In this document: positions 464-40,455 of the stretch, one piece after another
Layout: every line of letters begins with the position of its first letter
Numbering within the stretch: position 1 is the first letter of the stretch
Assembly (NCBI GenBank): GCA_045627605.1
Contig: JAZQOA010000072.1
Coordinates: 28,005-92,004, forward strand
Length of the DNA stretch: 64,000 bases
Direction of reading: 5' to 3'
DNA from: Kiritimatiellia bacterium
GTDB taxonomy: Bacteria > Verrucomicrobiota > Kiritimatiellia > RFP12 > JAAYLN01
Position numbers and translations under genes: made by a program
The notes under the pieces: generated by a model
Told to the model about the DNA's origin: nothing
Database searches by the model: none
What the model saw: only the letters and a program-made list of their open reading frames with translations

Positions 464-1261
464 ATGAATCTCCTCGTTCGCACAACGCCTGTCCAGGGCT
501 ACAACAAGATTTTCGACGTGGGCGAATACGGCATGAAGCTCACGAAGTTTGGCCTTCTCCACCTCGCCAAGGGAACCGAGTTCAAGGATGACACGGGCGA
601 GATGGAAGTTGCGCTTGTCCTTGTCGGCGGCAACTTCGCCGCGAAAGGCGACGGGTGGGCGTTTGAGGTCGCGGACGGTCGCAAGAGCCCGTTCACGGGG
701 AAGCCCCATTGCCTCTATCTCCCGCGCCATACGGCCTACGCGATTTCCGCGACGACGGACGTCGAGCTCGCCTTCAACGCCTCGCCCGCGACGCGCGACA
801 CCGCCCGCCCGACGTTGATCAAGCCCGAGGACACCCGCCACATTGCGCTTGGCAAGGACAATTGGACGCGAACCTCCGAAATCATCCTCGACGAGAAGTT
901 CGACTCCGAGCACTTCTATATCGGCGAGGGCATGATCCCCTCCGGCAATTGGTCCGGCTACCCGAGCCACCGGCACGACGTCAACAATCCGCCGACTGAG
1001 CTCGACATGGAGGAGACCTACTTCTACCTCTTCGACCCGCCCTGTGGCTTCGGATTCCAAAGCGTGTACCAGCCCGACGGCTCGCTCAACGAAGCCTACC
1101 GGGTGCAGAACTACGACACCGTCGCGATTGCCCAGGGCTACCACCCGCTCGTCGGGGCGCCCGGCTACCAGATGTACTACCTCTGGACGATGGCCGGCGC
1201 ACAGGGGCGGGGGCTCATCTCGTCCATGGATCCCGCGCATGCGTGGGTGAAGAATGGTTAA
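464..1261 (+). CDS. iolB: 5-deoxy-glucuronate isomerase (IolB)
   Basis: 265 aa with an ATG start. The C-terminal half matches my recollection of B. subtilis IolB (GNWSGYPSHRHD, EETYFY, GYHP, YYLW, DPAHAW). The last codons and stop (AAT GGT TAA) lie inside the left TIR of the adjacent element. Confidence 0.85.
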   Translation: MNLLVRTTPVQGYNKIFDVGEYGMKLTKFGLLHLAKGTEFKDDTGEMEVALVLVGGNFAAKGDGWAFEVADGRKSPFTGKPHCLYLPRHTAYAISATTDVELAFNASPATRDTARPTLIKPEDTRHIALGKDNWTRTSEIILDEKFDSEHFYIGEGMIPSGNWSGYPSHRHDVNNPPTELDMEETYFYLFDPPCGFGFQSVYQPDGSLNEAYRVQNYDTVAIAQGYHPLVGAPGYQMYYLWTMAGAQGRGLISSMDPAHAWVKNG

Positions 1262-1774
1262 ATGGTTAAATGGTTAAATTGCGCAGAGCGCTTTAAATCG
1301 CGCAGGGTGCTTTAAGTTGCACAGAGTGCTTTAAGTTTTCGGGAGCGGGTGATGACGGACGTTGGAAGGGAGCTAAGCGCACGTAGTTTTGACTTTGCCT
1401 TGCGCATTGTGAAGTTGGCGCAGGACCTTTCCGGCGGGAAGGGTGAAAATGTGCTGTCGAGACAAGTTCTGCGAAGCGGGACGAGCATCGGGGCAAATTT
1501 GCGCGAATCGATTTTCGCCCAATCGACGGCGGATTTTGTCTCGAAGTTGAGCATTGCCTTGAAGGAAGCGTCTGAAACGCAGTATTGGCTTGAACTTCTT
1601 CATGCGGCTGGTTATCTTGAAGAGGGGGGAGTTCGTCTCGCTCAAGGACGATGTCGACTGGCTCGTTGGAACGCTCGTAAATGTTGTCAAGACCAACAAG
1701 CGCAAACTCAACCGCCAATAACCCTCAATTTAACCATTTAACCATTTAACTTTTTAACTTTTTAACCATTCAAC
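1256..1774. mobile_element. TIR-bounded AT-rich element carrying a four-helix-bundle protein gene (IVS-like cassette)
   Basis: GTTAAATGGTTAAATGGTTAAAT at 1257-1279 and its exact reverse complement at 1728-1750, followed by degenerate TTTTTAAC copies to 1774. Three internal 18-19-nt units (TGCGCAGAGCGCTTTAAA type) at 1280-1335. AT-rich relative to the flanks. Confidence 0.65.
1352..1721 (+). pseudogene. four-helix-bundle protein (PF05635/TIGR02436-like, '23S rRNA intervening sequence protein'), disrupted by a +1 frameshift at a G6 run
   Basis: ATG at 1352 preceded by GGGAG. The N-terminal 90 aa fit the family pattern (SIGANLRES, LKEASETQYWLELL). After GGGGGG (1624-1629) the family-typical C-terminus EGEFVSLKDDVDWLVGTLVNVVKTNKRKLNRQ* is read only if one G is removed, giving a stop at 1719-1721. 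The as-sequenced frame instead runs on to 1741. Confidence 0.75.
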
Positions 1775-1778
1775 TCCC

Positions 1779-3512
1779 ATGTACTTGCTTGGCATAGACT
1801 TTGGCACGGGCGGATGCAAGGTGACGGCCGTCGATTACGAGGGCCGCCTTGTCGGCGACGCCTCCGTTGAATACGCGACCTATCACGAGCATCCCGGCTG
1901 GAGCGAGCAGGAGCCTTCCGACTGGTACGCGGCGATGTGCCAGGCGCTCGCCAAACTCGCCGCCAAGGGCGTCCGTCTCTCCGAGGTCGCCGCGCTCGCG
2001 CTCGACGGCTCCACGCACAACGCCGTGCTTCTCGGCCGCGACATGCGCCCCCTCCGCCGCACGATCATGTGGACTGACCAGCGCAGCACCGGGGAGTGCG
2101 CCTGGCTCCGCCGTGAAAAGGGCGATGAAATTTTCGCGACCTGCTACCAGATGCCTGCTCCGACCTGGACCTTGCCGCAGCTCATGTGGCTCAAGGCGCA
2201 CGAGCCCGAAGTCCTGGAACAGACGGCGCACGTCCTCTTTGTCAAGGACTACGTCCGCTTCCTCCTGACGGGGCATGTGGCGACGGACTACATCGAGGCG
2301 CAAGGCACGTTGATGTGCGACGTTAAATGGTTAAATAGCCCTACGGGCATTAAATGGTTAAATGGCCCTTCGGGCGTTAAAGAGTTAAATGGCCCTACGG
2401 GCGTTAAAGAGTTAAATGCGGCTTCGCCGTTGAATTTAAAGGCCTCTGGCCGATTTAACAATTTAACCTCTTATTGGGATTCCGATCTTGTCCAATTGTC
2501 AGGCTTGAAGATGTCCGCCATGCCGGAAATCATCAGGCCGACAGACGTTGTCGGCGGAGTGACTGCCGCAGCTTCTGCACAAACGGGGATTCCCGAAGGG
2601 ACGCCGGTTGTCTGCGGCACCAGCGACAGCGCCGTCGAGGACTATGGCGCGGGCGCCGTCGAGCCGGGCGACCTCATCATCAAGCTCGCCACGGCCGGCA
2701 ATGTCAACTCAATGACCGCCGCGCCGCATCCGCATCCAAAGACGCTCACCTACGCCCATGTCGTGCCGGGGATGTGGTACAGTGTGAGCGCCACCAACGC
2801 CGCGGCGCTTTGCCAGCGCTGGATGCGCGACACTTTTTTTGTTAAATGGTTAAATGGCCCTACGGGCATTAAAGAGTTAAATAGCCCTACGGGCATTAAA
2901 GAGTTAAATGCGGCTTCGCCGTTGAATTTAAAGGCCGCAGGCCGATTTAACAATTTAAAGCAATGCGATTTAACTTCTTACGAGGTGATGGATGCCGAAG
3001 CCGCGCAGTCGCCCATTGGCGCGGGAGGGGTGATGTTCCACCCGTACCTCCAGGGCGAGCGCTGCCCGTATTGGGATGCTAATCTCCGCGCCTCGTTTAC
3101 GGGCGTTTCGATTTCGTCGTCGCGCGGCGATTTTTGCCGTGCGCTTCTCGAAGGCGTGGCCTTCTCGTTGCGCGACTGCTACGGCACCCTTGAGGAGATG
3201 GGGCTTCCCGTCTCGCGCATTTTCCTGATTGGCGGAGGCGCGAAGTCCGCGCTCTGGAGCGAGATCGTCTGCAACGTCTTTGGCAAGCCCGTCGCAGTGC
3301 CCGCGCCTGCCGACGCCTCATTTGGCGCGGCGCTTCTGGCGGGCGTTGGCACGGGCGTCTTCGCAGACGCCAAGGCCGCCGTCGCCCAGTGCCTGCACAT
3401 CGCGCGGCGCATCGAGCCGGTGGCGGAGTCCGTCCGGGCCTATGACGCGCTCTACGCCCGCTACAAGGCCGTGCACGATGCCCTCGCGCCGGTTTATTCC
3501 GAAAGCAAATGA
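1779..3512 (+). CDS. xylB: FGGY-family carbohydrate kinase (xylulokinase-like) carrying two in-frame repeat-element insertions
   Basis: 577 aa. N-terminus MYLLGIDFGTGGCKV, then PGWSEQEPSDWY, TDQRS, GTSDS and LIGGGAKS motifs of FGGY kinases. It is about 90 aa longer than typical family members because of two AT-rich insertions. Confidence 0.75.
   Translation: MYLLGIDFGTGGCKVTAVDYEGRLVGDASVEYATYHEHPGWSEQEPSDWYAAMCQALAKLAAKGVRLSEVAALALDGSTHNAVLLGRDMRPLRRTIMWTDQRSTGECAWLRREKGDEIFATCYQMPAPTWTLPQLMWLKAHEPEVLEQTAHVLFVKDYVRFLLTGHVATDYIEAQGTLMCDVKWLNSPTGIKWLNGPSGVKELNGPTGVKELNAASPLNLKASGRFNNLTSYWDSDLVQLSGLKMSAMPEIIRPTDVVGGVTAAASAQTGIPEGTPVVCGTSDSAVEDYGAGAVEPGDLIIKLATAGNVNSMTAAPHPHPKTLTYAHVVPGMWYSVSATNAAALCQRWMRDTFFVKWLNGPTGIKELNSPTGIKELNAASPLNLKAAGRFNNLKQCDLTSYEVMDAEAAQSPIGAGGVMFHPYLQGERCPYWDANLRASFTGVSISSSRGDFCRALLEGVAFSLRDCYGTLEEMGLPVSRIFLIGGGAKSALWSEIVCNVFGKPVAVPAPADASFGAALLAGVGTGVFADAKAAVAQCLHIARRIEPVAESVRAYDALYARYKAVHDALAPVYSESK
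2322..2474 (+). mobile_element. MITE-like (ORF-less) derivative A of the 1256-1774 element family, in frame inside the kinase gene
   Basis: Left end GTTAAATGGTTAAAT (2322-2336). Right end ATTTAACAATTTAAC (2453-2467) pairs with it at 14/15 positions as an inverted repeat. The interior is five roughly 23-27-nt units, each a TTAAA-type block plus an 11-nt GC mini-hairpin (GCCCTACGGGC and similar). Translated as VKWLNSPTG-IKWLNGPSG-VKELNGPTG... Boundaries are +/-10 nt. Confidence 0.7.
2841..2981 (+). mobile_element. MITE-like (ORF-less) derivative B of the same family, in frame inside the kinase gene
   Basis: Same left end GTTAAATGGTTAAAT (2841-2855) and same unit order as copy A, with one fewer GCCC hairpin unit. 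Right end ATTTAACAATTTAAA...ATTTAAC (2945-2974). Same orientation and codon phase as copy A. Confidence 0.7.
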
Positions 3513-3565
3513 CACACGCCGGTTCTGCCTGGGCGGCGCCGGAGCCAACTTCAAGGAGAAATGAG

Positions 3566-4957
3566 ATGAAATTCGCGGTCATGCTTGCCAACCGGGGCTT
3601 TTTCCCCGGGGAACTGATAGCCGGGGCTCGGGAAGACCTCCGCAAGGCGCTTGCCGCCTGTGGACACGAGGCGCTTTTCATGGAAGGCGCGGGGACGCGC
3701 TACGACGCCGTCGAGACGATGGAGGAGGGGCGCAAGTTCGCCGACTTTCTCGCCGCCCGCAAGGGCCAGTACGATGGCGTCATCCTTTCGCAGCCCAACT
3801 TCGGCGATGAAAACGGTGCTTTCGTGGCGCTCCGCGACGCCGGCGTGCCGATCCTCGTCCAGGCCTACCCCGACGAGGCGGGGCTCATGGACTTCGCCCA
3901 CCGCCGCGACGCGCTTTGCGGCAAGCTTGCCATGTGCAACGTGCTGCGCCAGGCCGGGATCAGGCACTCGCTTACGCGTCGCTTCTGCGTCAAGCCGGAC
4001 TCCGCCGACTTCGCCGAGGACTTGCGCCTCTTCGCCGCCACCTGCCGGGTGGCGAACGGCATGCGCCGCGTCAACGTCGGCGCAATTGGCGCGCGCACAA
4101 CGGCTTTCAAGACGGTGCGCTTCGACGAGGTCGCCTTTATGGGCGCCGGCATCAACGTCGAGACCATCGACCTCTCGCTCGTCTTCAAGCTCATGGACGA
4201 AGCCGATCCCGCCGCCGTTGCCGCCATGGGGAAACGCCATGCCGACTACGCGGATTTCGGCACGTGGCCGGAGGAGAAGGCCGAAAACCTCGCCCGCCTC
4301 GGCGTGGCGCTCGACATTGTCCGCGACCGCTTCGGTCTTGACGCCATGGCCATCCGATGCTGGGACGAGCTCCAGCTCCGCTACGGCATCGCCCCGTGCC
4401 TGGCGATGAGCATCCTCAACCAGGACGGCCTACCCGCCTCATGCGAGATGGATGTCGACAATGCGGTCATGATGCGCGCGATCAATCTTGCCTCCGGGGC
4501 TCCCGTCGCGGTTTTCGACGTCAACAACAACTTTGGCGACGCCGCAGACCGCTGCATCATGTTCCATTGTTCAGCGATGCCCGCCGGCATGATGGTCGGC
4601 AAGCCATCCGTCGGTGAACACGCCATGTTCAGGAAGGCTTACGGCGCCGGTTCCGGCGTCGGCATCCTCAACGCCCCCGTCGCGAAGTCGCCCCTTACCG
4701 TTGGCAGCCTCAAGACGGAGAACGGCAAGGTCTGCGCCTTCGTCACGGAAGGCGAAATCACAGACGACAAGATCGAGGAGGCCTTTTTCGGCACGGGCTT
4801 CGTCTTCCGCAAGGACGACGGAGATTGCGAGGCCATGCTCCGCTATATGGCGAGGAACGGCTACCGCCACCACGTTTCCTTTGCCGCCGGCAAGTGGGCG
4901 GCGGCCATCGCGGAAGCCTTCGGCACCTACCTCGGCTACGCTGTCGACAGAATTTAG
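3566..4957 (+). CDS. L-fucose/L-arabinose isomerase family protein
   Basis: 463 aa from the ATG at 3566, with AAGGAG at 3553-3558. The pattern QPNFGDENG...RRDALCGKLAMCNVLRQ resembles the FucI/AraA-family N-terminal and central region. The track start at 3509 is upstream of the SD. Confidence 0.7.
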   Translation: MKFAVMLANRGFFPGELIAGAREDLRKALAACGHEALFMEGAGTRYDAVETMEEGRKFADFLAARKGQYDGVILSQPNFGDENGAFVALRDAGVPILVQAYPDEAGLMDFAHRRDALCGKLAMCNVLRQAGIRHSLTRRFCVKPDSADFAEDLRLFAATCRVANGMRRVNVGAIGARTTAFKTVRFDEVAFMGAGINVETIDLSLVFKLMDEADPAAVAAMGKRHADYADFGTWPEEKAENLARLGVALDIVRDRFGLDAMAIRCWDELQLRYGIAPCLAMSILNQDGLPASCEMDVDNAVMMRAINLASGAPVAVFDVNNNFGDAADRCIMFHCSAMPAGMMVGKPSVGEHAMFRKAYGAGSGVGILNAPVAKSPLTVGSLKTENGKVCAFVTEGEITDDKIEEAFFGTGFVFRKDDGDCEAMLRYMARNGYRHHVSFAAGKWAAAIAEAFGTYLGYAVDRI

Positions 4958-8908: not shown

Positions 8909-9251
8909 CGCATACCTCCTTTTTTGTTGTTTCGTCGAACGGGCCCCTCCCGTTTGACGCCATCAATTATGGACTATTTCATTGGGAAATTTCGTTGGAT
9001 TTGCAACATCTCGAAAATTCTTGAAGGAGAGGGGGCAGGCCCCTTTGCATCGAAGTCGCAAAACGTCTCCGTGAGTTGGAAAATGGATATGGGTTGCCAC
9101 TTTCGGCAGTGCAAAAAGGCAATCGGCTACCGGAGCTTGGTCGGCAACATGGAAATTCACGGAGACTGTGATCCAGGACCGCCAAAATGTGCTGCAAAAG
9201 TTTTACTTAACTTTCATTAAGTTAACCGTCGTTAAGTTAACCGAGGTTTGT

Positions 9252-9647
9252 TTAGTGGCAGTGGTGGCCGCAGTGGCTGCAGCTGCCGCCGCAGGAATGG
9301 CCTTCGTCGTGCCGGCACGTGGCGGACGCCGTTGCCGCGAGTTTGCCGTCGATGAATTGCGCGACGGCGTCGTCGGCCTTGCCTTCGACTCCCGCGAGGA
9401 CCTTGATGCGGGCCGCCGCGAGCATGCCGAGCGCCCCGGGGCCGATGCCGCCGCAGATGACGGTGTCGACCTCGTTCTGGATGAGCCAGATGGCGAGAAG
9501 TTCGTGGCCTTCGCTGGCGGCGTCCGCGACTTCGCTGTCCGTGACCTTGCCGTCCGCGACGGTGTAGAGCTTGAAGAGTTCCGTCTTGCCGAAGTGTTGG
9601 AAGATTTCGCCGTCGGGCGAGTAGGGGATGGCGATTTTGCTGGTCAT
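9252..9647 (-). CDS. NifB/NifX-family (dinitrogenase FeMo-cofactor-binding domain) protein with Cys/His-rich tail
   Basis: 131 aa from the ATG at 9647, with GGAG upstream. HFG...F, VICGGIGPGA pattern. C-terminus CRHDEGHSCGGSCSHCGHHCH. Its start overlaps the upstream stop (ATGA). Confidence 0.7.
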   Translation of the reverse strand: MTSKIAIPYSPDGEIFQHFGKTELFKLYTVADGKVTDSEVADAASEGHELLAIWLIQNEVDTVICGGIGPGALGMLAAARIKVLAGVEGKADDAVAQFIDGKLAATASATCRHDEGHSCGGSCSHCGHHCH

Positions 9648-17357: not shown

Positions 17358-17406
17358 GTTGCAATTTCCCGTTGCATTTTCCCGTTGCTTTTTTGTTGCT
17401 TTTATC
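17358..17406 (+). promoter_or_regulatory. four tandem GTTGC-headed 11-13-nt direct repeats upstream of the Hpt/kinase genes
   Basis: GTTGCAATTTCCC, GTTGCATTTTCCC, GTTGCTTTTTT, GTTGCTTTTATC, ending 28 nt before the ATG at 17434. Confidence 0.35.
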
Positions 17407-17842: not shown

Positions 17843-20380
17843 ATGCAGGATTTTGAAAAGGCGGAAGGCTCCAAGGAACAGAAGATCGCGTCGAAAGGGT
17901 CGTCGAGCGACCAGATTCTTTCGGCTATCACGAGGATGCTTTATTCCTACAACTTGACCGTCGATCTCGAAACGGGCAAGTACACGATGATCGAAGGCAC
18001 GGGCCTGACGAATATGCGCGAACTCTTCCGCCGGACGGACGACTTGCGCCGGGCGAACGAAAGCGTTTTCAGAACCATCGAACCGAAGTTCGTGCCCAAG
18101 TTGCGCGAACTGGTGGGCCTCGACTACCTGCGCAACCGCACTGAGTCGGGATACGTCGGCACCTACGAGTACATGGAGCGCAACACCGACAACAACGCCG
18201 TCGACCACTGGGCCGAAGTGAATGTCTTCATCGGTCACGACGAAGACGGGGGGGTCGTGGCGAACATCCTCGGTCGTGACATCACGGAGTTCCACCACCG
18301 GCAGGAGGCGCGCGACAAGGAGCAGAAAGCCGCCGCGGCGAAGGATCAGCTGCTGTCGGAAATCACCCAGAAACTCTACGGCTTCAACGTCACCGTCGAC
18401 TTGCAGACGGGTCACTACTCGCTCATCGAGGGCACTGGCACTCCGGATTCGGTGAAGGCGTTCTCCGAGGGCGAGTTCTATCCCGACGTCATCGAGAAGT
18501 TGCTTGGCCACGTCGCCGGCTCGCACGAGAACGAGGTGCGCCGTCTCTTCGGGTTCGACTATCTCGTCAACCGCAAGAACGAGGAAGGCTATGGCGGCTA
18601 CATCGAGTACCCGATGGACTTCGGCGGCCGCCACCGCTGGCACGAGGCGAACCTCTTTTTCGGAACAAGCGCCACAGGGGAGCGCGTGGCGAACATCCTC
18701 GGCCGCGACGTGACCGAGGCCCACGAGCGCCAGGAAATCCGCGAACGGGAACTCAAGGCTGTCGCGACGAAGGACATGATCCTCTCCGACATCACGCAGC
18801 ACCTCTACGCCTACAACCAGACGGTCGACCTCGACAGCGGAAAGTACACGCTGATCACGGGAACGGGCATGGAGGAGGTGCGCGAGATCCTCTCACGGAC
18901 GGACGACTTCAAGACGAGCTTCAATGAATGCCGCAAGATCGTCGAGCCCGACCACTTGAAGGAGGTGGACGAACTGATTTCCCTGGAGGCCCTGCGCGCG
19001 CCGGGCGTGCCGGACGGCTTCGTGAACCGAATCGAGTATCCGGCGACGATCAACGGCAGCCGGCACTGGCACGAGGTCAATGTCTTCCGCGGCACCGGCG
19101 CATCGGGGCGGCCCGTCGCGAACGTTCTGGGCCGTGACGTGACCGAGGCCCACGAGCAAAGCGACACCGCCGCCCAGCTGGCGATCGCCCGCGCCGCAAA
19201 CAAGGCCAAGAGCGAGTTCCTTTCGAACATGTCGCACGACATCCGCACGCCGATGAACGCCATTCTCGGCATGACGACGATTGCGCAGACCTATATTTCG
19301 CAACGCACCGACGACGCAGTCTGCATCAAGCAGATTTCGGACTGCCTCGACAAGGTCCTCGTCGGCTCGCGCCACCTGCTCTCGCTCATCAACGACGTGC
19401 TCGACATGTCGCGCATGGAGTACGGGCGCCTCTCGATCAACGAGGCCCCGATCAAACTCGACGAAATCGTCAAGGGCGTCCTCTCGCTCATCCGCTCGCA
19501 GGGCGAGGACAAGGGCATTCTGGTGGAGTATTTCGAGGAGAAAATCATCCACCGCTCGCTGAAGGTCGACGCCATGCGCATCAACCAGATCTTCATCAAC
19601 ATCCTCGGCAACTCGGTCAAGTTCACGCCGAAGGGCGGCAAGATCACGTGGCGCATCAGCGAACAGCCGGGCGATCAGCCCGACGTCTCGGTTTTCCGTT
19701 TCGAATGCCGCGACACGGGCCGCGGTATGAGCGCGGAGTTCCTGCCCAAGCTCTTCGACCCGTTCGCGCAGGAGGGGCGCCAGTTCTCCGACACCTATGT
19801 CGGCACCGGTCTCGGCATGGCGATTACCAAGCAGATCGTCGAGCTGATGCACGGGTCGATCGTGGTCTCGAGCCGGCTGGGCGAAGGCACCACGTTTGTC
19901 GTCGAACTGCCGCTCAAGCACGCCGAAAAAATGACGGGCGACAAGGACGAGGCCAAAGCCTTGCCCAAGCCGGCGAGCACCAACATTGTCTCCGGCCGCT
20001 CCTTCCTCGTGGCCGAGGACGTTCCCTCCAACGCCGAGGTCATCACCCAGATGGTCGAGCTTTGCGGCGGGAAAATCGAGATCGCCGCCAACGGCCGCCT
20101 GGTCGTCGAGCGCTTCCGCCGTGCCAAGAAGGGCGAGTTCGACGCCATTTTCATGGACATCCGCATGCCCGAGATGAATGGCTACGAGGCCACCTCGGCA
20201 ATCCGCGCGCTCGACCGCGACGACGCGAAGACCATCCCGATCATCGCCATGAGTGCGGATGCCTTCGCCGAGGACATCGCCAGGGCCAAGCAGAGCGGCA
20301 TGAACGACCATGTGTCGAAGCCCATCCGCTTCAAGCAACTTTCCGCCACGCTTCAGAAAGTACTTCCCGAAAGGAAATGA
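17843..20380 (+). CDS. hybrid sensor histidine kinase with three tandem approximately 160-aa sensor repeats
   Basis: ATG at 17843 after GGGGAGGG. Three paralogous modules begin ILSAITRMLYSYNLTVDLETGKY, LLSEITQKLYGFNVTVDLQTGHY and ILSDITQHLYAYNQTVDLDSGKY. Then H-box SNMSHDIRTPMNAILGM, HATPase_c and REC (FMDIRMPEMNG...SKP). Confidence 0.9.
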   Translation: MQDFEKAEGSKEQKIASKGSSSDQILSAITRMLYSYNLTVDLETGKYTMIEGTGLTNMRELFRRTDDLRRANESVFRTIEPKFVPKLRELVGLDYLRNRTESGYVGTYEYMERNTDNNAVDHWAEVNVFIGHDEDGGVVANILGRDITEFHHRQEARDKEQKAAAAKDQLLSEITQKLYGFNVTVDLQTGHYSLIEGTGTPDSVKAFSEGEFYPDVIEKLLGHVAGSHENEVRRLFGFDYLVNRKNEEGYGGYIEYPMDFGGRHRWHEANLFFGTSATGERVANILGRDVTEAHERQEIRERELKAVATKDMILSDITQHLYAYNQTVDLDSGKYTLITGTGMEEVREILSRTDDFKTSFNECRKIVEPDHLKEVDELISLEALRAPGVPDGFVNRIEYPATINGSRHWHEVNVFRGTGASGRPVANVLGRDVTEAHEQSDTAAQLAIARAANKAKSEFLSNMSHDIRTPMNAILGMTTIAQTYISQRTDDAVCIKQISDCLDKVLVGSRHLLSLINDVLDMSRMEYGRLSINEAPIKLDEIVKGVLSLIRSQGEDKGILVEYFEEKIIHRSLKVDAMRINQIFINILGNSVKFTPKGGKITWRISEQPGDQPDVSVFRFECRDTGRGMSAEFLPKLFDPFAQEGRQFSDTYVGTGLGMAITKQIVELMHGSIVVSSRLGEGTTFVVELPLKHAEKMTGDKDEAKALPKPASTNIVSGRSFLVAEDVPSNAEVITQMVELCGGKIEIAANGRLVVERFRRAKKGEFDAIFMDIRMPEMNGYEATSAIRALDRDDAKTIPIIAMSADAFAEDIARAKQSGMNDHVSKPIRFKQLSATLQKVLPERK

Positions 20381-20384
20381 CGAG

Positions 20385-22835
20385 ATGATTACCGACTTGA
20401 ACGGCCGCAGCGCCGCGATAGCCTGTGCGAGCGACGAGGACTCCGAGCGCCTGGCCGGGGCCCTTGCCGAACTCGGCGTCGAGACCGATATCTACGCTGC
20501 GGACGCCTCTGGCGCCGTGTTGGCCATCGCGAGCGGCCGCCGCTACGACTTCGTGCTGGTGCACTGCACGGCCAAGACGCTGTCAGACCGCGTCATGTGC
20601 GAGACCTACCGTCTCGCCGGCGACATCGCCGCACGACACTTGGTCGCCATCACTTCCGACTGGTCGCATGTCGAGTCGCTTGCGCCGGGGCTTGGGTTCT
20701 GCGCCTATCTGCGCCCGAGCGCCGACCGCGACGAGGTGCGCCGCGTGATGGGGAAAATCCTCGCCGACGAAAAACGCGCTCTGGCAAAGACCGAGCACCC
20801 CGACCTTATGGGCAAGCACTTCCTCGTGGTGGACAACAACGTTTCCAACGTCGAGATCCTCAAAAACGCCATCGAGTGCTTTGGCGGCACCGTTGACGTG
20901 TCCAGCAGCGGGGAAGAGGCCATATCGAAGATGCTCAACGCGCCGGCATCGGGCGACGCCGCCTATTCGATGGTGCTGATGGACATCTACATGCCGCCGG
21001 GCATCGACGGCCTCGAAGCCACGCAGCGCTTCCGCAATTCGGCCCATCCGCTGGCGAAGACGCTGCCGATCGTCATCGTCTCGGGCGATGCCGACCCGTT
21101 GATCACCGTTCGCGAGCGCGAGGTCGGTGCCAGCGCCTTTCACCTGAAGCCGCTCACGCGCTCGGCCCTCGTCGAGATTCTCCGCCGCTTCCTCGATTTG
21201 CCGCCCCAGGCCGAAACCAACGTCGAGCTCACCAGGATCCGCCGCATTTCCGAGTTGAAGGAGGACAACCGCAAGCTTACGTCGTTCCTCAACACCCAGA
21301 AGGCCGCCAGCGCGTTCTTCAACCACATGTTCGACGCGCTTCCCCAGCCGGTCTTCCTCAAGGATGCGGCAAACTCCCAGTACCTGCGGTGCAACCCCGC
21401 GTTCGTCGAAGCCAACGGCCATACAAGCGAGCAGATTATCGGAATGTTCGACCGCGATATCTTCCCGGCCGAATTTGCCGAGGCGTTCGTCGCGCATGAC
21501 AAGGCCACCCTCGCCGCACCTGACGGGCGGTGCTTTTTCCCGACCCACGGCTGCGGTGCCGATGGCTGCGAACACCGCCTCTGGGACAAGTGGCAGGTCG
21601 TTATCGACGGCCAGGATGGGCGGCGCTACATTCTGGGCGCACTCAGTGAGGTCACGAAGCGCGTCGAGGACGCGAATCGCATCCTCCAGCAGGAGCGCCA
21701 GATCAACGAGGCCGTCAAGAAGGAGCGCGACGTGGCCGTCGCCGCCGAAAAGGCGAAGAGTTTCTTCTTCTCCGCGATCAGCCACGACATCCGAACGCCG
21801 CTCAACTCGGTGATAGGTTTCGTCGACATGCTCGAGCGCGAGGACGACCCCGCGCTGCGCCAGGAGTACATCCGAAACATCAAGTCCAGCGGCCGCGACC
21901 TCATGCGCCTCGTCGACGACATGATCGACCTCGTCAAGTACGACAATGGTGGCGCGGCTGTCTTGGCCGAGCCTTTCCAGGTCGGCGATCTCGCCCGGGA
22001 GTGCAGGGACGCGCTGAAGGGCGCCGTCGAGGCGAAGGGCCTTGAGTTCACGCTCGACCTCCCCGACGACATGCCCTTGCTGGTCGTCGATCGCCGCCAT
22101 TTCCGCCAGATCCTGATGAATCTCGTCGACAACGCCGTCAAGTTCACCGAAAAGGGTTCTGTGAAGGTGTCGCTGTCGTATGTGTCGGAGGTACTCACAC
22201 TGCGTGTGAAGGACACGGGCTGCGGCATCGCGCGAGACGACCTGGAGCGCATCCTGAAGCCCTACGTGAAGGTTGAAAACCGGACGCAGACGGGCGGCAC
22301 GGGCATCGGATTGGCAATCGTCAACCTTCTTGTCGAACGCATGGGTGGCAAACTCTCGGTGCAGAGCCTCGTCGGGGTGGGGTCTGAATTCTCGGTCGTC
22401 GTGCCTGACGTGAAGGTCGGGAAGATAAAGGCCGCCGACACCGGACTGAAGGCGTCAAAGCTCCTGCCTTTCGACGGCAAGCGCCTGCTGTTGGTGGACG
22501 ACGTGAAGCTCAACCTGATGGTGCTGTCGTCGTATTGCCGCAAGCTTGGCGCGGCGAAATGCCTGATGGCTTCCTGCGGGGAGGAGGCGCTGCAGGTGCT
22601 GGCGAAGGAACCGGTCGACATGGTACTGACCGACATCCTGATGCCGGGCATGGGCGGCGTGGGCCTCGTGAAGGAAATCCGCGCCAACAAGGATTATGAA
22701 AAAATGCCCGTCCATGCCGTGACGGCTGATGTCGAGTTCGCCAAGAATGGCGACACGCGGAACTTCGACGGCGTGATCATGAAGCCGCTTACGCTCGACA
22801 GCCTCAGCCGCCACTTTGCGAAATACACCCCTTGA
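20385..22835 (+). CDS. hybrid sensor kinase/response regulator (pseudo-REC, REC, PAS-like, HisKA, HATPase_c, REC)
   Basis: ATG at 20385, 4 nt after the upstream stop. REC LVVDNNVSN...LMDIYMPPGIDG, H-box SAISHDIRTPLNSVIGF, DTGCGI and GTGIGLAIV, C-terminal REC LLVDDVKLN...TDILMPGMGG. Confidence 0.85.
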   Translation: MITDLNGRSAAIACASDEDSERLAGALAELGVETDIYAADASGAVLAIASGRRYDFVLVHCTAKTLSDRVMCETYRLAGDIAARHLVAITSDWSHVESLAPGLGFCAYLRPSADRDEVRRVMGKILADEKRALAKTEHPDLMGKHFLVVDNNVSNVEILKNAIECFGGTVDVSSSGEEAISKMLNAPASGDAAYSMVLMDIYMPPGIDGLEATQRFRNSAHPLAKTLPIVIVSGDADPLITVREREVGASAFHLKPLTRSALVEILRRFLDLPPQAETNVELTRIRRISELKEDNRKLTSFLNTQKAASAFFNHMFDALPQPVFLKDAANSQYLRCNPAFVEANGHTSEQIIGMFDRDIFPAEFAEAFVAHDKATLAAPDGRCFFPTHGCGADGCEHRLWDKWQVVIDGQDGRRYILGALSEVTKRVEDANRILQQERQINEAVKKERDVAVAAEKAKSFFFSAISHDIRTPLNSVIGFVDMLEREDDPALRQEYIRNIKSSGRDLMRLVDDMIDLVKYDNGGAAVLAEPFQVGDLARECRDALKGAVEAKGLEFTLDLPDDMPLLVVDRRHFRQILMNLVDNAVKFTEKGSVKVSLSYVSEVLTLRVKDTGCGIARDDLERILKPYVKVENRTQTGGTGIGLAIVNLLVERMGGKLSVQSLVGVGSEFSVVVPDVKVGKIKAADTGLKASKLLPFDGKRLLLVDDVKLNLMVLSSYCRKLGAAKCLMASCGEEALQVLAKEPVDMVLTDILMPGMGGVGLVKEIRANKDYEKMPVHAVTADVEFAKNGDTRNFDGVIMKPLTLDSLSRHFAKYTP

Positions 22836-22907: not shown

Positions 22908-22955
22908 GTCCTTCTGGGAAACGACGCATTGCAATATCCCGCCCGCGTCAGGGGA

Positions 22956-23015
22956 GGTTGTAGGTTGAAGGTTGTAGGTTGAAGGTTGGAGGTTGAAGGT
23001 TGAAGGTTGGAGGTG
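22956..23015. repeat. heptamer tandem array (GGTTGNA) x ~8.5
   Basis: GGTTGTA GGTTGAA GGTTGTA GGTTGAA GGTTGGA GGTTGAA GGTTGAA GGTTGGA GGTG. Confidence 0.9.
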
Positions 23016-23585
23016 CGAGTGGGGAGTAGGCATCGGTACCGCCGCGCAAAACATCGGTGCTTCTCGTCTCATGTCTCTCGTCTCATGTCTCACGCCCTCG
23101 CTCATCACATGAGGACACGAGACAAGAGACACGAGACGCAAAAGGTTCGCGCCCGGTGCCCCGCAAGAGCCAGTAGGCATCGGTACCGCCGCGCAAAACA
23201 TCGGTGCTTCTCGTCTCTTGTCTCATGTCTCACGCCCTCGCTCATCACATGAGGACACGAGACAAGAGACACGAGACGCGAAAGGTTCGCGCCCGGTGCC
23301 CCGCAAGAGCCGGTAGGCATCGGTACCGCCGCGCAAAACATCGGTGCTTCTCGTTTCTTGTCTCATGTCTCACGCCCTTGCTCATCACATGAGGACACGA
23401 GACAAGAGACACGAGACGCGAAAGGTTCCCGCCCGGTGCCCCGCAAGAGCCGGTAGGCATCGGTACCGCCGCGCAAAACATCGGTGCTTCTCGTCTCATG
23501 TCTCTCGTCTCTTGTCTCACGCCCTTGCTCATCACATGAGGACACGAGACAAGAGACACGAGACGCGAAAGGTTCGCGCCAGCTT
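23016..23585. repeat. four tandem copies of a ~140-bp unit, each with a long heptad-built hairpin
   Basis: The GTAGGCATCGGTACC landmark occurs at 23025, 23173, 23313 and 23453, giving periods of 148, 140 and 140. Units are near-identical. The example stem 23212-23231 / 23259-23278 pairs at 18/20 positions with a 27-nt loop. The last unit ends about 6 nt from the hemW stop. Confidence 0.9.
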
Positions 23586-24725
23586 TCACGCGAGCAGTTC
23601 CGCGATGGCGGCGTCCGCGACTTCGCGTCCGCGCCGCGTGAGCGCCCAGCGCCCGGGGCGGATTTCCTGCGTGATGCCGTGCGTGGCGAGACGCCTTAGC
23701 GTCGATTCCCATTCGGCGACGCGCACCGCGGCGGCGGGGTGGGTCTTGGCGAAGGCCGCGGGCGAAGCGCCTTCCGCCATGCGCAGCGCGTAGGCAAAGC
23801 GTTCCTCGGCGTCGTCCGCCGGCGAAAGCGTCTCGTCGTTCTCGGCGGGCGGAAGCGAGCCGGCGCCGAGCGCCGCCCGCCATTTCGCGACGTCGGGCGC
23901 GATGGTGCGGCGCGTTAGCCCAAGGCGCGAGGCCGCGGCGGGGCCGAGCCCCAGGTAGTCCTCTCCGCGCCAGCAGGCGAGGTTGTGGCGGCATTCGAAG
24001 CCGGGAAGCGCGTAGTTGGAGATTTCGTAGCGAACAAAACCGGCGGCGGCGAGGATGTCCTCCGTCCGCGCCAGAAGGTCCATTTGCGCGTCGTCCGCCA
24101 GGGGGGCGAGCCTGCCGGCGGCGATGTCGCGGCCCAACGCCGTTCCGGACTCGACAATCAGGCCGTAGACCGAGAGGTGGCGGGGGGCGAGCGCCAGCGC
24201 CTTTGCAAGCGTCTTTTCCCAGGCGGGGGCTTCGACACCGGGGTAGCCCGCGATGAGATCGAAGCCGACATTGCCGAAGCCGTGTGCGCGGGCGAGCGCA
24301 AGGGCGTCTGCCACGTCGCGCGCCGTGTGGCGGCGGCCCATGGCCTTGAGGACGGCGTCGTCAAGCGACTGCGCGCCGAAACTAAGGCGGTTGACGCCGA
24401 GGGCGCGGAGCGCGTCGAGAAGGGCGGGGGTCGTGATTTCCGGCGAGGGATTGAGCTCGACGGTCCATTCCGTCGCGCGGGAAATGTCAATGCCCGCGGC
24501 GGCGAGTTCCGCCACGGTTTCGCGGAGGCCGTCGGACCCGAGCAATCCGGGTGTGCCGCCGCCGAAATAGATGGTCCCGGGGGCGAGATGGCCGCCTGCG
24601 CGGAGTGCGCATTCGCGCCCGATGCGCCTTGGGAAGTCGCGGGCGCCCTCCAAGCCGGCAATGGAATAGAGTGCGCAGTAGCGGCACTTCGAGAGGCAGA
24701 AGGGGACGTGGAGGTAGAGGTTCAT
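23586..24725 (-). CDS. hemW: radical SAM family heme chaperone / oxygen-independent coproporphyrinogen oxidase-like (HemW/HemN family)
   Basis: 379 aa from the ATG at 24725. LYLHVPFCLSKCRYCALYS (CX3CX2C), YFGGGTP and a HemN C-terminal-like region. Confidence 0.8.
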   Translation of the reverse strand: MNLYLHVPFCLSKCRYCALYSIAGLEGARDFPRRIGRECALRAGGHLAPGTIYFGGGTPGLLGSDGLRETVAELAAAGIDISRATEWTVELNPSPEITTPALLDALRALGVNRLSFGAQSLDDAVLKAMGRRHTARDVADALALARAHGFGNVGFDLIAGYPGVEAPAWEKTLAKALALAPRHLSVYGLIVESGTALGRDIAAGRLAPLADDAQMDLLARTEDILAAAGFVRYEISNYALPGFECRHNLACWRGEDYLGLGPAAASRLGLTRRTIAPDVAKWRAALGAGSLPPAENDETLSPADDAEERFAYALRMAEGASPAAFAKTHPAAAVRVAEWESTLRRLATHGITQEIRPGRWALTRRGREVADAAIAELLA

Positions 24726-24751
24726 CGCGGCGGGGGCGCGGGCGGCGGGGG

Positions 24752-25357
24752 TCACTCGTCTTCTTCGAGGATGATTTCGGGAAGCCGCTCCTCCTTCGAC
24801 TTCCAGCCGTTGGTCCAGTCCGTCCCCGGGTCGAAGAACTCCTCGCCGGGGCGGAGGTCGTCCTTCGTGTCGGGGCGTCCGTCCGGCCCGCATGAGAAGA
24901 GGACGGGCAGGGCGTTGGTTCCCCGTTCGTAGAAGTAGGGGCGGCCCCAGGGGTCTTCCATCAGCTGGACGAGGTAGGGGCCGTCCCAGCCGGGTTCGCC
25001 GAGGTCCTTGTTGAGCGCGGCGAGGCCCTGCTCCGTTTCGGGGAAGCGCCCCACGTGCATTTTGTAGCGGCCGAGGGCGGTGGCGAGGACATCGAGCGAC
25101 TTGACCGCCGTGAGGTGCGGGATGGGGCGGTCGGAGTTGTCGCGGACAGTGCGCCCCACCTTGCCGATGAGGAGCCCGCCGACAATGGCGAGGATGAAAA
25201 TCGCCGCGAAGATGACGCGCGGGGCGTAGATTTCGCGCAGCGTGGGCGTCGCCGAAATCCCGGCAAGACGGCGTTCCGCCTCGCGCCTGATCTGGAGCTT
25301 GCGCCGTCTGCGGCGCGCGGCGTCGCCGGGGTTGTGTTTCGCGGGGCCTTGCTGCAT
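24752..25357 (-). CDS. GspG-like (type II secretion pseudopilin C-terminal domain) membrane protein
   Basis: 201 aa. Arg-rich N-terminus, one TM (VIFAAIFILAIVGGLLIG), then ...GRFPETEQGLAAL...WDGPYL...DPWGRPYFY...SCGPDGRPDTKDD, typical of the GspG C-terminal domain. No G/FTLIE prepilin motif seen. Confidence 0.65.
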   Translation of the reverse strand: MQQGPAKHNPGDAARRRRRKLQIRREAERRLAGISATPTLREIYAPRVIFAAIFILAIVGGLLIGKVGRTVRDNSDRPIPHLTAVKSLDVLATALGRYKMHVGRFPETEQGLAALNKDLGEPGWDGPYLVQLMEDPWGRPYFYERGTNALPVLFSCGPDGRPDTKDDLRPGEEFFDPGTDWTNGWKSKEERLPEIILEEDE

Positions 25358-39342: not shown

Positions 39343-39432
39343 GGATGAGGTTCCTTTTTGCTAATTGGATGAAACGCCGAAAATGATTATAGCATTTTTC
39401 AGGACGCACGCCGAGAGGCTTCGCTTCGGCTC

Positions 39433-39502
39433 GATGCTCAGATGCTCGGATGCTCGATGTTCGGATGCTCTGATGCTCGATGTTCGGATGCTCGGATGCT
39501 CT
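39433..39502. repeat. 7-8-nt tandem array (GATGCTCN) x 9 in a divergent promoter region
   Basis: GATGCTCA GATGCTCG GATGCTC GATGTTCG GATGCTCT GATGCTC GATGTTCG GATGCTCG GATGCTCT, between galM (start 39342, minus) and the SGNH gene (start 39583, plus). Confidence 0.85.
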
Positions 39503-39582: not shown

Positions 39583-40455
39583 ATGAAAATGCATCATGTA
39601 GTGGCCGCGGCAGTTTTCCTGGCGGCGTTTGCGGCGCAGGCGGAATTCATCGTCAAGAGCGGTGATGTACTCGCCTTTCTGGGCGATTCGATCACCCAGC
39701 AAGGGCAGGGATTGCCTGTCGGGTACGTCAACCTCGTGTTGCATTCGCTCACGAAGGAAGGGGTCGATGTGAAACCCGTCAAGGCTGGCATTTCCGGGCA
39801 CAAGTCCGACAACATGCTCGGGCGGCTTGATCGCGATGTCCTTGGCAAGGGCGCGAAGGTCATGACGTTGTCGTGCGGCGTCAACGACGTGTGGCACCAG
39901 GACGGCGGGCGCGGCGTCCTGCTCGACGCCTTCAAGACGAACGTGACCGCGATCCTCGACAAGTGCGCCGCCTCCAACTGCACGGTGGTGGTGATGACGG
40001 CGTCGATGTTCCAGTACCACGGCTGGGAAAAGGACCCCCACAACGTGAAGCTCGCGCCCTACAACGACTTCCTGCGCGAAATCGCCGCCGCGCGCAAGCT
40101 CCCGCTTGCGGACGTCAACAAGGCGATGTGGGAAGCCTATGCCGCCGATCCCGAGGGACGGCTCACGGCGGATGGCGTCCACATGAACTGGTCGGGCAAT
40201 TTCCTGATGGCGAAATGCGTCCTCGCCGCGCTTGGGGCCGACGCCGCGAAGCTTGCGGCCTATGAGCGCGATTGGCGCGCAATTATTGGCGGCTCGGAAC
40301 TGAAAATTCCGCTTTCAATCGACGAGATGGACAAGCTCAAGGCCGCTGCCGGCCAAATGGGCGAATCCAGTCAGGTTGCCGACTTCGTCCGTGTGCGCTG
40401 TGGACTCACGGATGGCCGCGGTTCGCATGCCCCGATGCCGGAGCCTGTCAAGTGA
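39583..40455 (+). CDS. secreted SGNH/GDSL hydrolase
   Basis: 290 aa with a signal peptide. LAFLGDSITQQG, CGVNDV and DGVHMN blocks. Confidence 0.8.
   Translation: MKMHHVVAAAVFLAAFAAQAEFIVKSGDVLAFLGDSITQQGQGLPVGYVNLVLHSLTKEGVDVKPVKAGISGHKSDNMLGRLDRDVLGKGAKVMTLSCGVNDVWHQDGGRGVLLDAFKTNVTAILDKCAASNCTVVVMTASMFQYHGWEKDPHNVKLAPYNDFLREIAAARKLPLADVNKAMWEAYAADPEGRLTADGVHMNWSGNFLMAKCVLAALGADAAKLAAYERDWRAIIGGSELKIPLSIDEMDKLKAAAGQMGESSQVADFVRVRCGLTDGRGSHAPMPEPVK

Follow-up and report, generated by a model that had tools for sequence, protein, structure and literature searches.

In-frame palindromic repeat inserts in a xylulokinase gene of a Kiritimatiellia bacterium

Two AT-rich inserts in one kinase gene

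We analysed a 64,000-nt stretch of DNA from a Kiritimatiellia bacterium (hereafter the window; coordinates are window positions unless a locus is named), and found that an FGGY-family xylulokinase gene within it (1779..3512, + strand) carries two copies of a palindromic repeat element. The open reading frame (ORF) of the gene is uninterrupted and encodes 577 aa including both inserts. Its product matches the Pfam families FGGY_N (3.3e-47) and FGGY_C (1.6e-31), and the nearest solved structures in the PDB are the xylulokinases 5VM1 and 2ITM. Insert A (2322..2474, + strand) is a 153-nt element with no ORF of its own, forming 51 codons between kinase residues D181 and W233. Its sister copy, insert B (2841..2981, + strand), has 141 nt, or 47 codons, between F354 and E402. 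The boundaries were set by codon alignment with the insert-free orthologue L003 (P numbers label orthologous proteins, and L numbers label loci). An original prediction, made from the letters of the DNA, had described about 150 nt of AT-rich DNA interrupting a GC-rich kinase gene. In agreement with this, the GC content across 2300-2500 was 0.42-0.47, compared to 0.60-0.73 in the flanking kinase DNA and 0.63 in the entire window. Insert B is likewise AT-rich, with the GC content of both inserts in the range 0.42-0.47.

The two ends of insert A are inverted repeats of each other. The left end, GTTAAATGGTTAAAT at 2322-2336, recurs as its reverse complement at 2453-2467 with one mismatch (14/15), as had been noticed. 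Allowing up to two mismatches, we found 13 occurrences of this 15-mer in the window, all within 1257-2959, and none in 100 dinucleotide-preserving shuffles. Tandem Repeats Finder (TRF) reported a period of 27 with 3.6 copies and 90% matches at 2321-2418. The 27-nt unit consists of two 8-nt TTAAA-type words and an 11-nt GC hairpin, whose all-GC stem of 4 bp closes a 3-nt loop. Three full units (2322-2348, 2349-2375, 2376-2402) precede a fourth pair of left words plus central hairpin CGGCTTCGCCG (2403-2429), the right arm TTGAATTTAAAG-GGCCTCTGGCC-GATTTAACAATTTAAC (2430-2467) and a degenerate last word, CTCTTAT (2468-2474). This alternation of words and mini-hairpins had been recognised correctly, except that the third hairpin was misquoted: it is CGGCTTCGCCG at 2419-2429, one base further right. 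Insert A has five all-GC hairpins, evenly spaced in 2338-2451, and insert B has four; a hairpin scan of the whole 64 kb found regular clusters of such hairpins in these two inserts only. In insert B the 27-nt unit occurs twice, the central hairpin is that of insert A and the right arm includes the extra module AATTTAAAGCAATGCGATTTAAC; the two inserts are 95% identical over 117 nt.

The units of insert A read as a 9-aa repeat (VKWLNSPTG IKWLNGPSG VKELNGPTG VKELNAASP...) before the host frame returns at SYWDSDLV. The ORF 1779-3512 reads through the insert, just as the original prediction had it. The predicted peptides of the insert-bearing kinase are WLNSPTGIK, ELNGPTGVK, ELNAASPLNLK and FNNLTSYWDSDLVQLSGLK. 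The final words of inserts A and B are ACC TCT TAT and ACT TCT TAC, and each looks like the terminal word ACTTTTTAAC minus its in-frame TAA.

Insertion sites, reading frame and conservation

To compare the kinase with its relatives, we used the 120 best homologues, which are Kiritimatiellae-type xylulokinases of 489-639 aa. Insert-free orthologues have about 490-500 aa. One of them (P0010/L003) reads GTLFFDMKASRWSDEL at site 1, the position of insert A, in GC-normal DNA; around the two insertion points it reads GTLFFD-MKASR-WSDEL (site 1) and RDTFF-KDISAPDGRNL-YNVMD (site 2, the position of insert B). Insert-free orthologues with GC-normal DNA at the same point bear out the claim that an element has been inserted into the kinase. 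At site 1, 51 codons stand in place of 5. Thus the estimate that about 50 aa had been added was right for the length of the insert, and the net gain is 46 aa. At site 2, 47 codons stand in place of 11, a net gain of 36 aa.

We mapped sites 1 and 2 to E. coli XylB residues 179-184 and 301-307. In an AlphaFold2 model built on 71 orthologues, the core of the kinase is confident (pTM 0.80). Residues 192-228 have pLDDT 31-42 and no secondary structure, and much of 370-390 has pLDDT <50 and no secondary structure. Length also varies at these positions: at least 8 extra residues were found at site 1 in 33/120 orthologues and at site 2 in at least 34/120. The model and the length variability suggest that both sites are indel-tolerant loops.

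About a third of the related kinases carry palindromic inserts at sites 1 and 2, and these belong to several families that share one grammar. A 7-8-nt word is joined to an 11-nt hairpin with a GAA, GCA or TTC loop, and the left half is inverted relative to the right half. For example, the insert in L052 has CACTTAG plus CCGCGAAGCGG in 18-nt units, and the one in L004 uses GTTCAAAG words. The L094 kinase (P0013; L094 5428-7128) has a RRDAEAQR...SLRLCGS palindrome of a different family at site 1 and a second copy of it as a C-terminal extension (ending ..RRRDAERVHGEKLCGSASLCDAN and a stop); the TTAAAT family occupies its site 2, and an S23p cassette lies upstream. Some of the orthologue inserts are AT-rich like those of the window, and others have a GC content near that of the host. 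Extra residues also occur at a third site near residue 85 (11/120 orthologues) and at a fourth near residue 113, used in L027 and L006. At this fourth site we observed GC-rich tandem units (L027 10325-10549, L006 10325-10402; APHSQIP x4, RPASEV x3), indicating that in-frame repeats are not always AT-rich.

The frame is strictly kept. The seven sequenced kinase copies have 153, 141, 222, 195, 111, 114 and 93 nt, and 7/7 are multiples of 3. The element has exactly one stop-free frame per strand, with 5-7 stops in the remaining frames, and inserts A and B both sit in the open sense frame. Among the word clusters of the metagenome loci described below, 18/33 are without any open frame. The strain variants P0001-P0004 differ mainly by whole 9-aa (27-nt) units and by one duplicated right-arm module, and near-identical strains show few point substitutions in the inserts beyond changes of unit number. 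Orthologues with identities as low as about 70% have inserts at these two sites, and the full-length kinase ORF is kept in at least 8 insert-bearing lineages.

Furthermore, we compared the inserts with their host gene codon position by codon position. The host proteins of the window and L002 are 77% identical, and their codon positions 1/2/3 have identities of 0.80/0.85/0.56. For the 55 alignable insert codons, the values are 0.82/0.84/0.87. Because the insert profile is flat and its third positions are far better kept than those of the host, constraint or homogenisation acts on the insert DNA, rather than selection on the peptide. The right arm also has lineage-specific variants common to both sites of a genome: a GAA loop, CAATTTAACG and CGAAGCG in L002, and GCA/TCT, CGATTTAACA and CAATGCG in the window. 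As for the host gene, the window differs from strain L001 by 7 synonymous and 0 non-synonymous changes over 479 host codons, which shows that the gene is under purifying selection with the inserts in place. The invariant residues of the FGGY motifs are kept. The kinase adjoins a downstream fucose-isomerase-like gene, and it adjoins KduI/IolB in L001 and L094.

Dispersed relatives and an S23p cassette

To find further copies, a pattern scan of public metagenome contigs was made with the 25-nt right-arm module TTTAAAGGCCNNNGGCCRATTTAAC, and 22 unrelated loci matched exactly. In 22/22, the module is surrounded by GGTTAAAT words and GCCGC-TTC-GCGGC or GGCC-GAA-GGCC hairpins, with GAA, GCA and TTC loops. 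By inspection, most of the metagenome copies sit between two genes. The density reaches 3 copies in 6.7 kb in the structural region of a Mu-like prophage. These three copies lie at L085 816-932, 1598-1699 and 3367-3449, between the structural genes (Portal_Mu, phage cement protein). Viral contigs scanned with the right-arm pattern gave 0 matches. Judged by these loci, the insert DNA is a member of a dispersed element family. The original prediction had taken the insert for an element and not a protein repeat domain; the mostly intergenic copies and the flat codon-position conservation agree with this, and are the opposite of a nonapeptide repeat encoded by GC-normal, non-palindromic DNA.

The family also occurs in frame in another gene. 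At L080 1-1020 and L081 2-1261 (reverse strand), the TTAAAT family is read as MVKSPP...DLKAEGRFNNLT directly upstream of an FGE-sulfatase domain, and the ORF continues into the domain. Since the in-frame element is present in two diverged contigs, the FGE-sulfatase protein is a second candidate host.

Upstream of the kinase gene lies an ORF-bearing relative of the inserts. This cassette (1254..1774, + strand), placed between the KduI/IolB and kinase genes, resembles the intervening sequences (IVSs) of 23S rRNA. It has a perfect 25-nt inverted repeat (1257-1281 / 1726-1750) made of insert-type words. Its left array of GGTTAAAT words (1254-1279) and three 19-nt units of a word plus a GCGC-AGA-GCGC-type hairpin (1274-1334) precede the ORF, and a right array of ATTTAACC / TTTTTAAC words (1726-1774) follows it; TRF gave periods of 8 and 19. 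As predicted, the left end of insert A matches the ends of this element, there delimited as 1256-1774, and the terminal words are identical. The cassette encodes an S23p protein (1352..1721, + strand) of PF05635, the four-helix-bundle 23S rRNA intervening-sequence protein (Pfam 2.8e-20). In the window an additional G in the run 1624-1629 (six G, compared to five in L001) shifts the frame of this gene and splits the ORF into 1349-1741 and 1590-1721. The gene is intact in strain L001 (1084-1452; 122 aa), and the extra G is either real decay or a sequencing error.

The upstream KduI/IolB-family gene (464..1261, + strand) runs into the cassette. Its last codons, ..GTG AAG AAT GGT TAA (1247-1261), encode ..WVKNG and a stop, and the TAA lies inside the first GGTTAAAT word. 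In L011 the junction is insert-free, with GTGAAGAA directly joined to CTCCTGATG, and the KduI/IolB gene ends ..WVKNS and a stop, overlapping the kinase start. Judged by this junction, the cassette has been inserted and provides the upstream gene with its stop codon. In L006 this junction contains four CTCAACTT-type words.

We found similar flanks around other S23p genes. In L094 the orthologue of the cassette gene is flanked by ends of the insert family. In L106, L108 and L112, a 64%-identical S23p gene with exactly TTAAAT-plus-hairpin ends lies beside an FAD-oxidase gene. The S23p homologues with readable context lie between inverted arrays of 7-8-nt words of the GGTTAA type, such as GGTTAAA / TTTAACC in L095 (2870-3476) and GGTTAAGC / GCTTAACC in L096-L101, where the downstream copies number 3-7 among strains. 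In these arrays (L095; L096-L105, ~1400-1960; L106, L108 and L112), the ORF stop codon is inside the first downstream word. Many S23p homologues are on contigs <2 kb, as expected because the genes are repeat-flanked, and inserts of this kind leave gene calls and assemblies inflated and fragmented. A phmmer search of 90 kinase and element loci found S23p homologues only in the window and L001; therefore, the cassette is not generally linked to the kinase or to the ORF-less copies. L002 carries both kinase inserts and lacks the upstream cassette. From their build, the ORF-less copies appear to be, in effect, two cassette ends joined.

Other repeats were observed elsewhere in the window. The region 22955-23580 separates two convergent ORFs, 20310-22835 (+) and 23586-24893 (-). 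It contains 8.6 copies of the heptamer AGGTTGA and, after them, a 140-nt unit repeated 3.9 times, each repeat being a palindrome of GTCTCAT / GACACGA heptamers. These look like a further family of word-array repeats, based on another word. Upstream of a small ORF starting near 39584, there is an intergenic run of ~9.5 8-mers of the GCTCGGAT type (39429-39501). The regions 9153-9268 and 17358-17393 are AT-rich, with TTAAGTTAAC words and 2.8 copies of the 13-mer GTTGCATTTTCCC, and may be operators or further small repeats.

Interpretation and comparison with known systems

Taken together, this data makes it highly probable that inserts A and B are translated, tolerated, non-autonomous copies of a dispersed palindromic family in Kiritimatiellae-type gut and rumen bacteria, similar to MITEs (the miniature inverted-repeat class of transposable elements) or Rickettsia palindromic elements (RPEs). 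A translated, tolerated RPE-like element is the most likely explanation. Insertion, family membership, frame preservation, DNA-level conservation and purifying selection on the host gene are borne out by the results above; the route by which the element arrived and any role of the S23p protein we infer. The family is built of TTAAA-type 7-8-nt words alternating with 11-nt GC mini-hairpins, with the left half the inverse of the right. The full-length form holds an S23p gene between the same ends that are joined in the ORF-less form. In the kinase, the element would have settled in two indel-tolerant loops. With 8+8+11 = 27 nt, or 9 codons, it is phased in its sole stop-free sense frame. The insert would persist in the kinase because this version is so phased and stop-free, and the ribosome would therefore read through it. 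The kinase so produced would have gained two loops, each of about 50 aa and probably disordered. The number of units would drift in 27-nt steps via slippage or recombination, and the insert sequence would be kept at the nucleotide level, either because words and hairpins are constrained or because copies exchange sequence, and not by selection on the peptide.

Several points weigh against this explanation. Translation is argued from frame preservation, mobility is judged from the distribution of copies and not from a mechanism, and the disorder and surface exposure of the extra loops are predicted features. Since the orthologues were found by protein search, broken genes would be under-sampled. 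Within the window, the family is confined to 1.8 kb around the kinase. Contigs of species-representative genomes scanned with the left-unit pattern GTTAAATRGCCCTWCGGGCRTTAAA gave 0 matches, so the genome of the window or its close relatives are not among these representatives. A word-indexed protein search with the 47-aa insert-B peptide gave no candidate and is uninformative, as it also missed the kinase itself. The same peptide searched with HMMER against 1.84 billion cluster representatives found no other host proteins, with 4 weak, unrelated matches (LVIVD-like and eukaryotic repeat proteins); this set holds one representative per 50% cluster, and the result is not decisive. We found no target-site duplication: the flanks of insert A (TGCGAC / TGGGAT) and insert B (TTTTTT / GAGGTG) have no common direct repeat, and CTCTTAT / TTCTTAC at the ends resemble degenerate final words, not duplications. 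No transposase was found, the partner with the same ends encoding PF05635/S23p alone, and no genome-wide candidate search was made. Finally, the global identities of paralogous insert pairs (0.93) and orthologous pairs (0.88-0.93) are not clearly separated; therefore homogenisation, strong DNA constraint and repeated site-specific insertion cannot be told apart. Clear concerted evolution, with paralogues closer than orthologues, was rejected: the right-arm variants support it, but the global identities do not.

The original prediction had left open that the insert is taken out or neutralised in the RNA. The route could be RNase III cleavage of the stem formed by the inverted ends, followed by ligation, or else ribosomal bypassing; either would give a protein without the extra loop. 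We consider this improbable. The ORF-bearing relative is indeed built like a 23S rRNA IVS, a kind of sequence that RNase III cuts out (PMC4990558); the insert RNA also folds into a more stable structure than its shuffles (z = -2.5), and an inverted-repeat-triggered mRNA excision system is described for animals in PMC12779559. However, removal at the RNA level gives no reason for the lengths in multiples of 3, the single stop-free frame and the 27-nt steps, and strict preservation of frame and length, seen in every variant, makes it unnecessary. Cutting by RNase III that is not followed by ligation would destroy the mRNA, and the minimum-free-energy folds leave the two termini unpaired. Neither a stop codon nor a take-off/landing codon pair of the T4 gene 60 kind is present, and Rfam gave no match at E <= 1 in 1000-3700. 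No intron or intein features support the proposal either. It is also very improbable that the neighbouring cassette was a local source of the inserts, from which gene conversion or template switching across 0.5-1.6 kb produced them before they grew by slippage, with no mobile family involved. The three window copies do lie within 1.8 kb, with none in the other 62 kb, the unit-number changes are clearly slippage-like, and the right-arm variants are common to both sites of a genome. But L002 has both inserts and no upstream cassette, the family is dispersed in unrelated contexts, and the right-arm modules of the inserts (GGCC-NNN-GGCC hairpins) are absent from the neighbouring cassette and present in distant copies.

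A genuine nonapeptide-repeat domain, selected for kinase function and encoded by DNA that merely looks repetitive, would explain the regular 9-aa period and the recurrence of inserts at the same two sites. This idea is already largely refuted, and we give it hardly any credence. Codon-position conservation is flat, with third positions at 0.87 compared to 0.56 in the host; the same DNA is common in intergenic spacers; and this DNA is AT-rich and palindromic, with an open frame on the opposite strand too. Unit number varies among near-identical strains, the model gives the segment very low pLDDT and no secondary structure, and unrelated palindromes fill the same loops in other lineages. Equally remote is the idea that the kinase is a decaying pseudogene in which disruptive inserts left the frame open by luck. 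One gene with two AT-rich insertions, next to a frameshifted S23p gene, might look like decay. This is countered by the absence of non-synonymous changes relative to L001, the full-length ORF in the other insert-bearing lineages, and the preserved FGGY residues and gene neighbours.

Three further candidates were rejected. A self-splicing intron was set aside on the same Rfam result. An intein does not fit, as inserts A and B each start with V and end with Y and are followed by W (A) or E (B). Diversification by a diversity-generating retroelement (DGR) was considered since S23p is Avd-like; the genes called on either side of the cassette and kinase include no reverse transcriptase, and the variation is gain and loss of units, not adenine-specific substitution.

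To our knowledge, in-frame selfish palindromes are textbook matter only for Rickettsia. They are now seen in PVC-group bacteria of gut and rumen that are free-living and GC-rich, where the phenomenon recurs in at least 4 loops of one metabolic enzyme across many lineages. The inserts form a trail from a fresh AT-rich element to a GC-normal loop, and so offer a natural record of repeat DNA becoming protein sequence. In our literature search, no description of such elements in Kiritimatiellae was found. The apparent link between in-frame palindromic repeats and IVS-type S23p cassettes was unexpected. S23p cassettes with the same word-array ends are found away from rRNA in various gene neighbourhoods, and dispersed derivatives that lack the ORF exist as well, which makes the hypothesis that the IVS is a mobile element directly testable. 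A speculative extension, which we think rather unlikely, is that S23p IVSs are one face of a widespread class of mobile cassettes, each with a PF05635 gene between inverted GGTTAA-type arrays, and with ORF-less derivatives, spreading wherever an additional hairpin or loop can be accommodated (rRNA helices, spacers and protein surface loops), and that the Avd-like S23p protein recognises the word arrays. A bolder variant would have the cell process such inserts out of some transcripts.

One known system for comparison is the MITE. The inserts are small, have terminal inverted repeats, lack genes of their own and exist in multiple copies; a target-site duplication and a transposase-bearing partner were not found. 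BOX elements of Streptococcus pneumoniae are modular, non-autonomous intergenic repeats with no known transposase. Like the inserts, they are built of a left module, a varying number of inner units and a right module able to pair with the left one. The two are not expected to be related in sequence, and BOX elements are intergenic, whereas the units here are phased to codons. The REP/BIME/REPIN elements with their RAYT genes (PMC3733652) resemble the family in their clustered small, GC-rich hairpins, alternating orientation, mostly intergenic position and a gene flanked by its own repeats. The conserved GTAG/CGTC tag of REP sequences is lacking in the inserts, whose hairpins are flanked by TTAAA words, with CTAC only inside some loops. 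In place of a Y1 transposase, the repeat-flanked gene encodes a PF05635 four-helix bundle, and no genome-wide RAYT search was made. The small mobile sequences RU-1/2/3 and ERIC of enterobacteria, described as sometimes intragenic (PMC2759123, PMC2229807), are MITE-like repeats with open frames that add peptide segments when in genes. Sequence, build and host are different here, and the same enzyme loops are filled in many lineages by several families.

The cassette at 1254-1774 is best compared with the ORF-containing IVSs of 23S rRNA in Leptospira, Coxiella and Xanthomonas, which combine an S23p gene with inverted repeats capable of forming a stem. The Coxiella IVS has tandem GACAGAT heptamers in 2-3 strain-variable copies before the S23p ORF, and its authors recall an older proposal that IVSs are mobile elements, describing IVS origin and the role of the S23p ORF as still unclear (PMC4990558). 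An S23p ORF, inverted repeats and variable tandem short repeats are all present in 1254-1774, and word number varies among strains in L096-L101; the kinase insert has the ends only. ORF-less short forms of the IVS exist too, as here. In contrast to an IVS in helix 25 or 45 of 23S rRNA, the cassette lies between protein-coding genes, with no rRNA match in 1000-3700, and its ORF-less form lies in a coding sequence and would be translated rather than excised.

The RPEs, reportedly described by Ogata et al. in 2000 as in-frame palindromic inserts in genes, offer the closest parallel, and the analogy drawn in the original prediction stands. We regard the kinase inserts as a functional analogue and claim no membership, because the host is a Kiritimatiellae-type lineage known from metagenome-assembled genomes (MAGs). 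The analogy with the intragenic enterobacterial families is looser, and we claim no membership there either. Like the inserts, RPEs (also discussed in PMC1779305) are palindromic repeats of about 100-150 nt that lie in frame in coding genes without breaking them and also occur between genes; they are thought to sit in loops, adding peptide, and have an open frame in both orientations. The inserts, at 153 and 141 nt, with ends pairing at 14/15 positions and the host ORF preserved, agree with this description in size, palindromic build and frame. They differ from RPEs in the phylum of their host, in being AT-rich within a GC-rich genome, and in their modules of words and mini-hairpins with a 27-nt unit of strain-variable number. 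Furthermore, an ORF-bearing relative, the S23p cassette, exists here.

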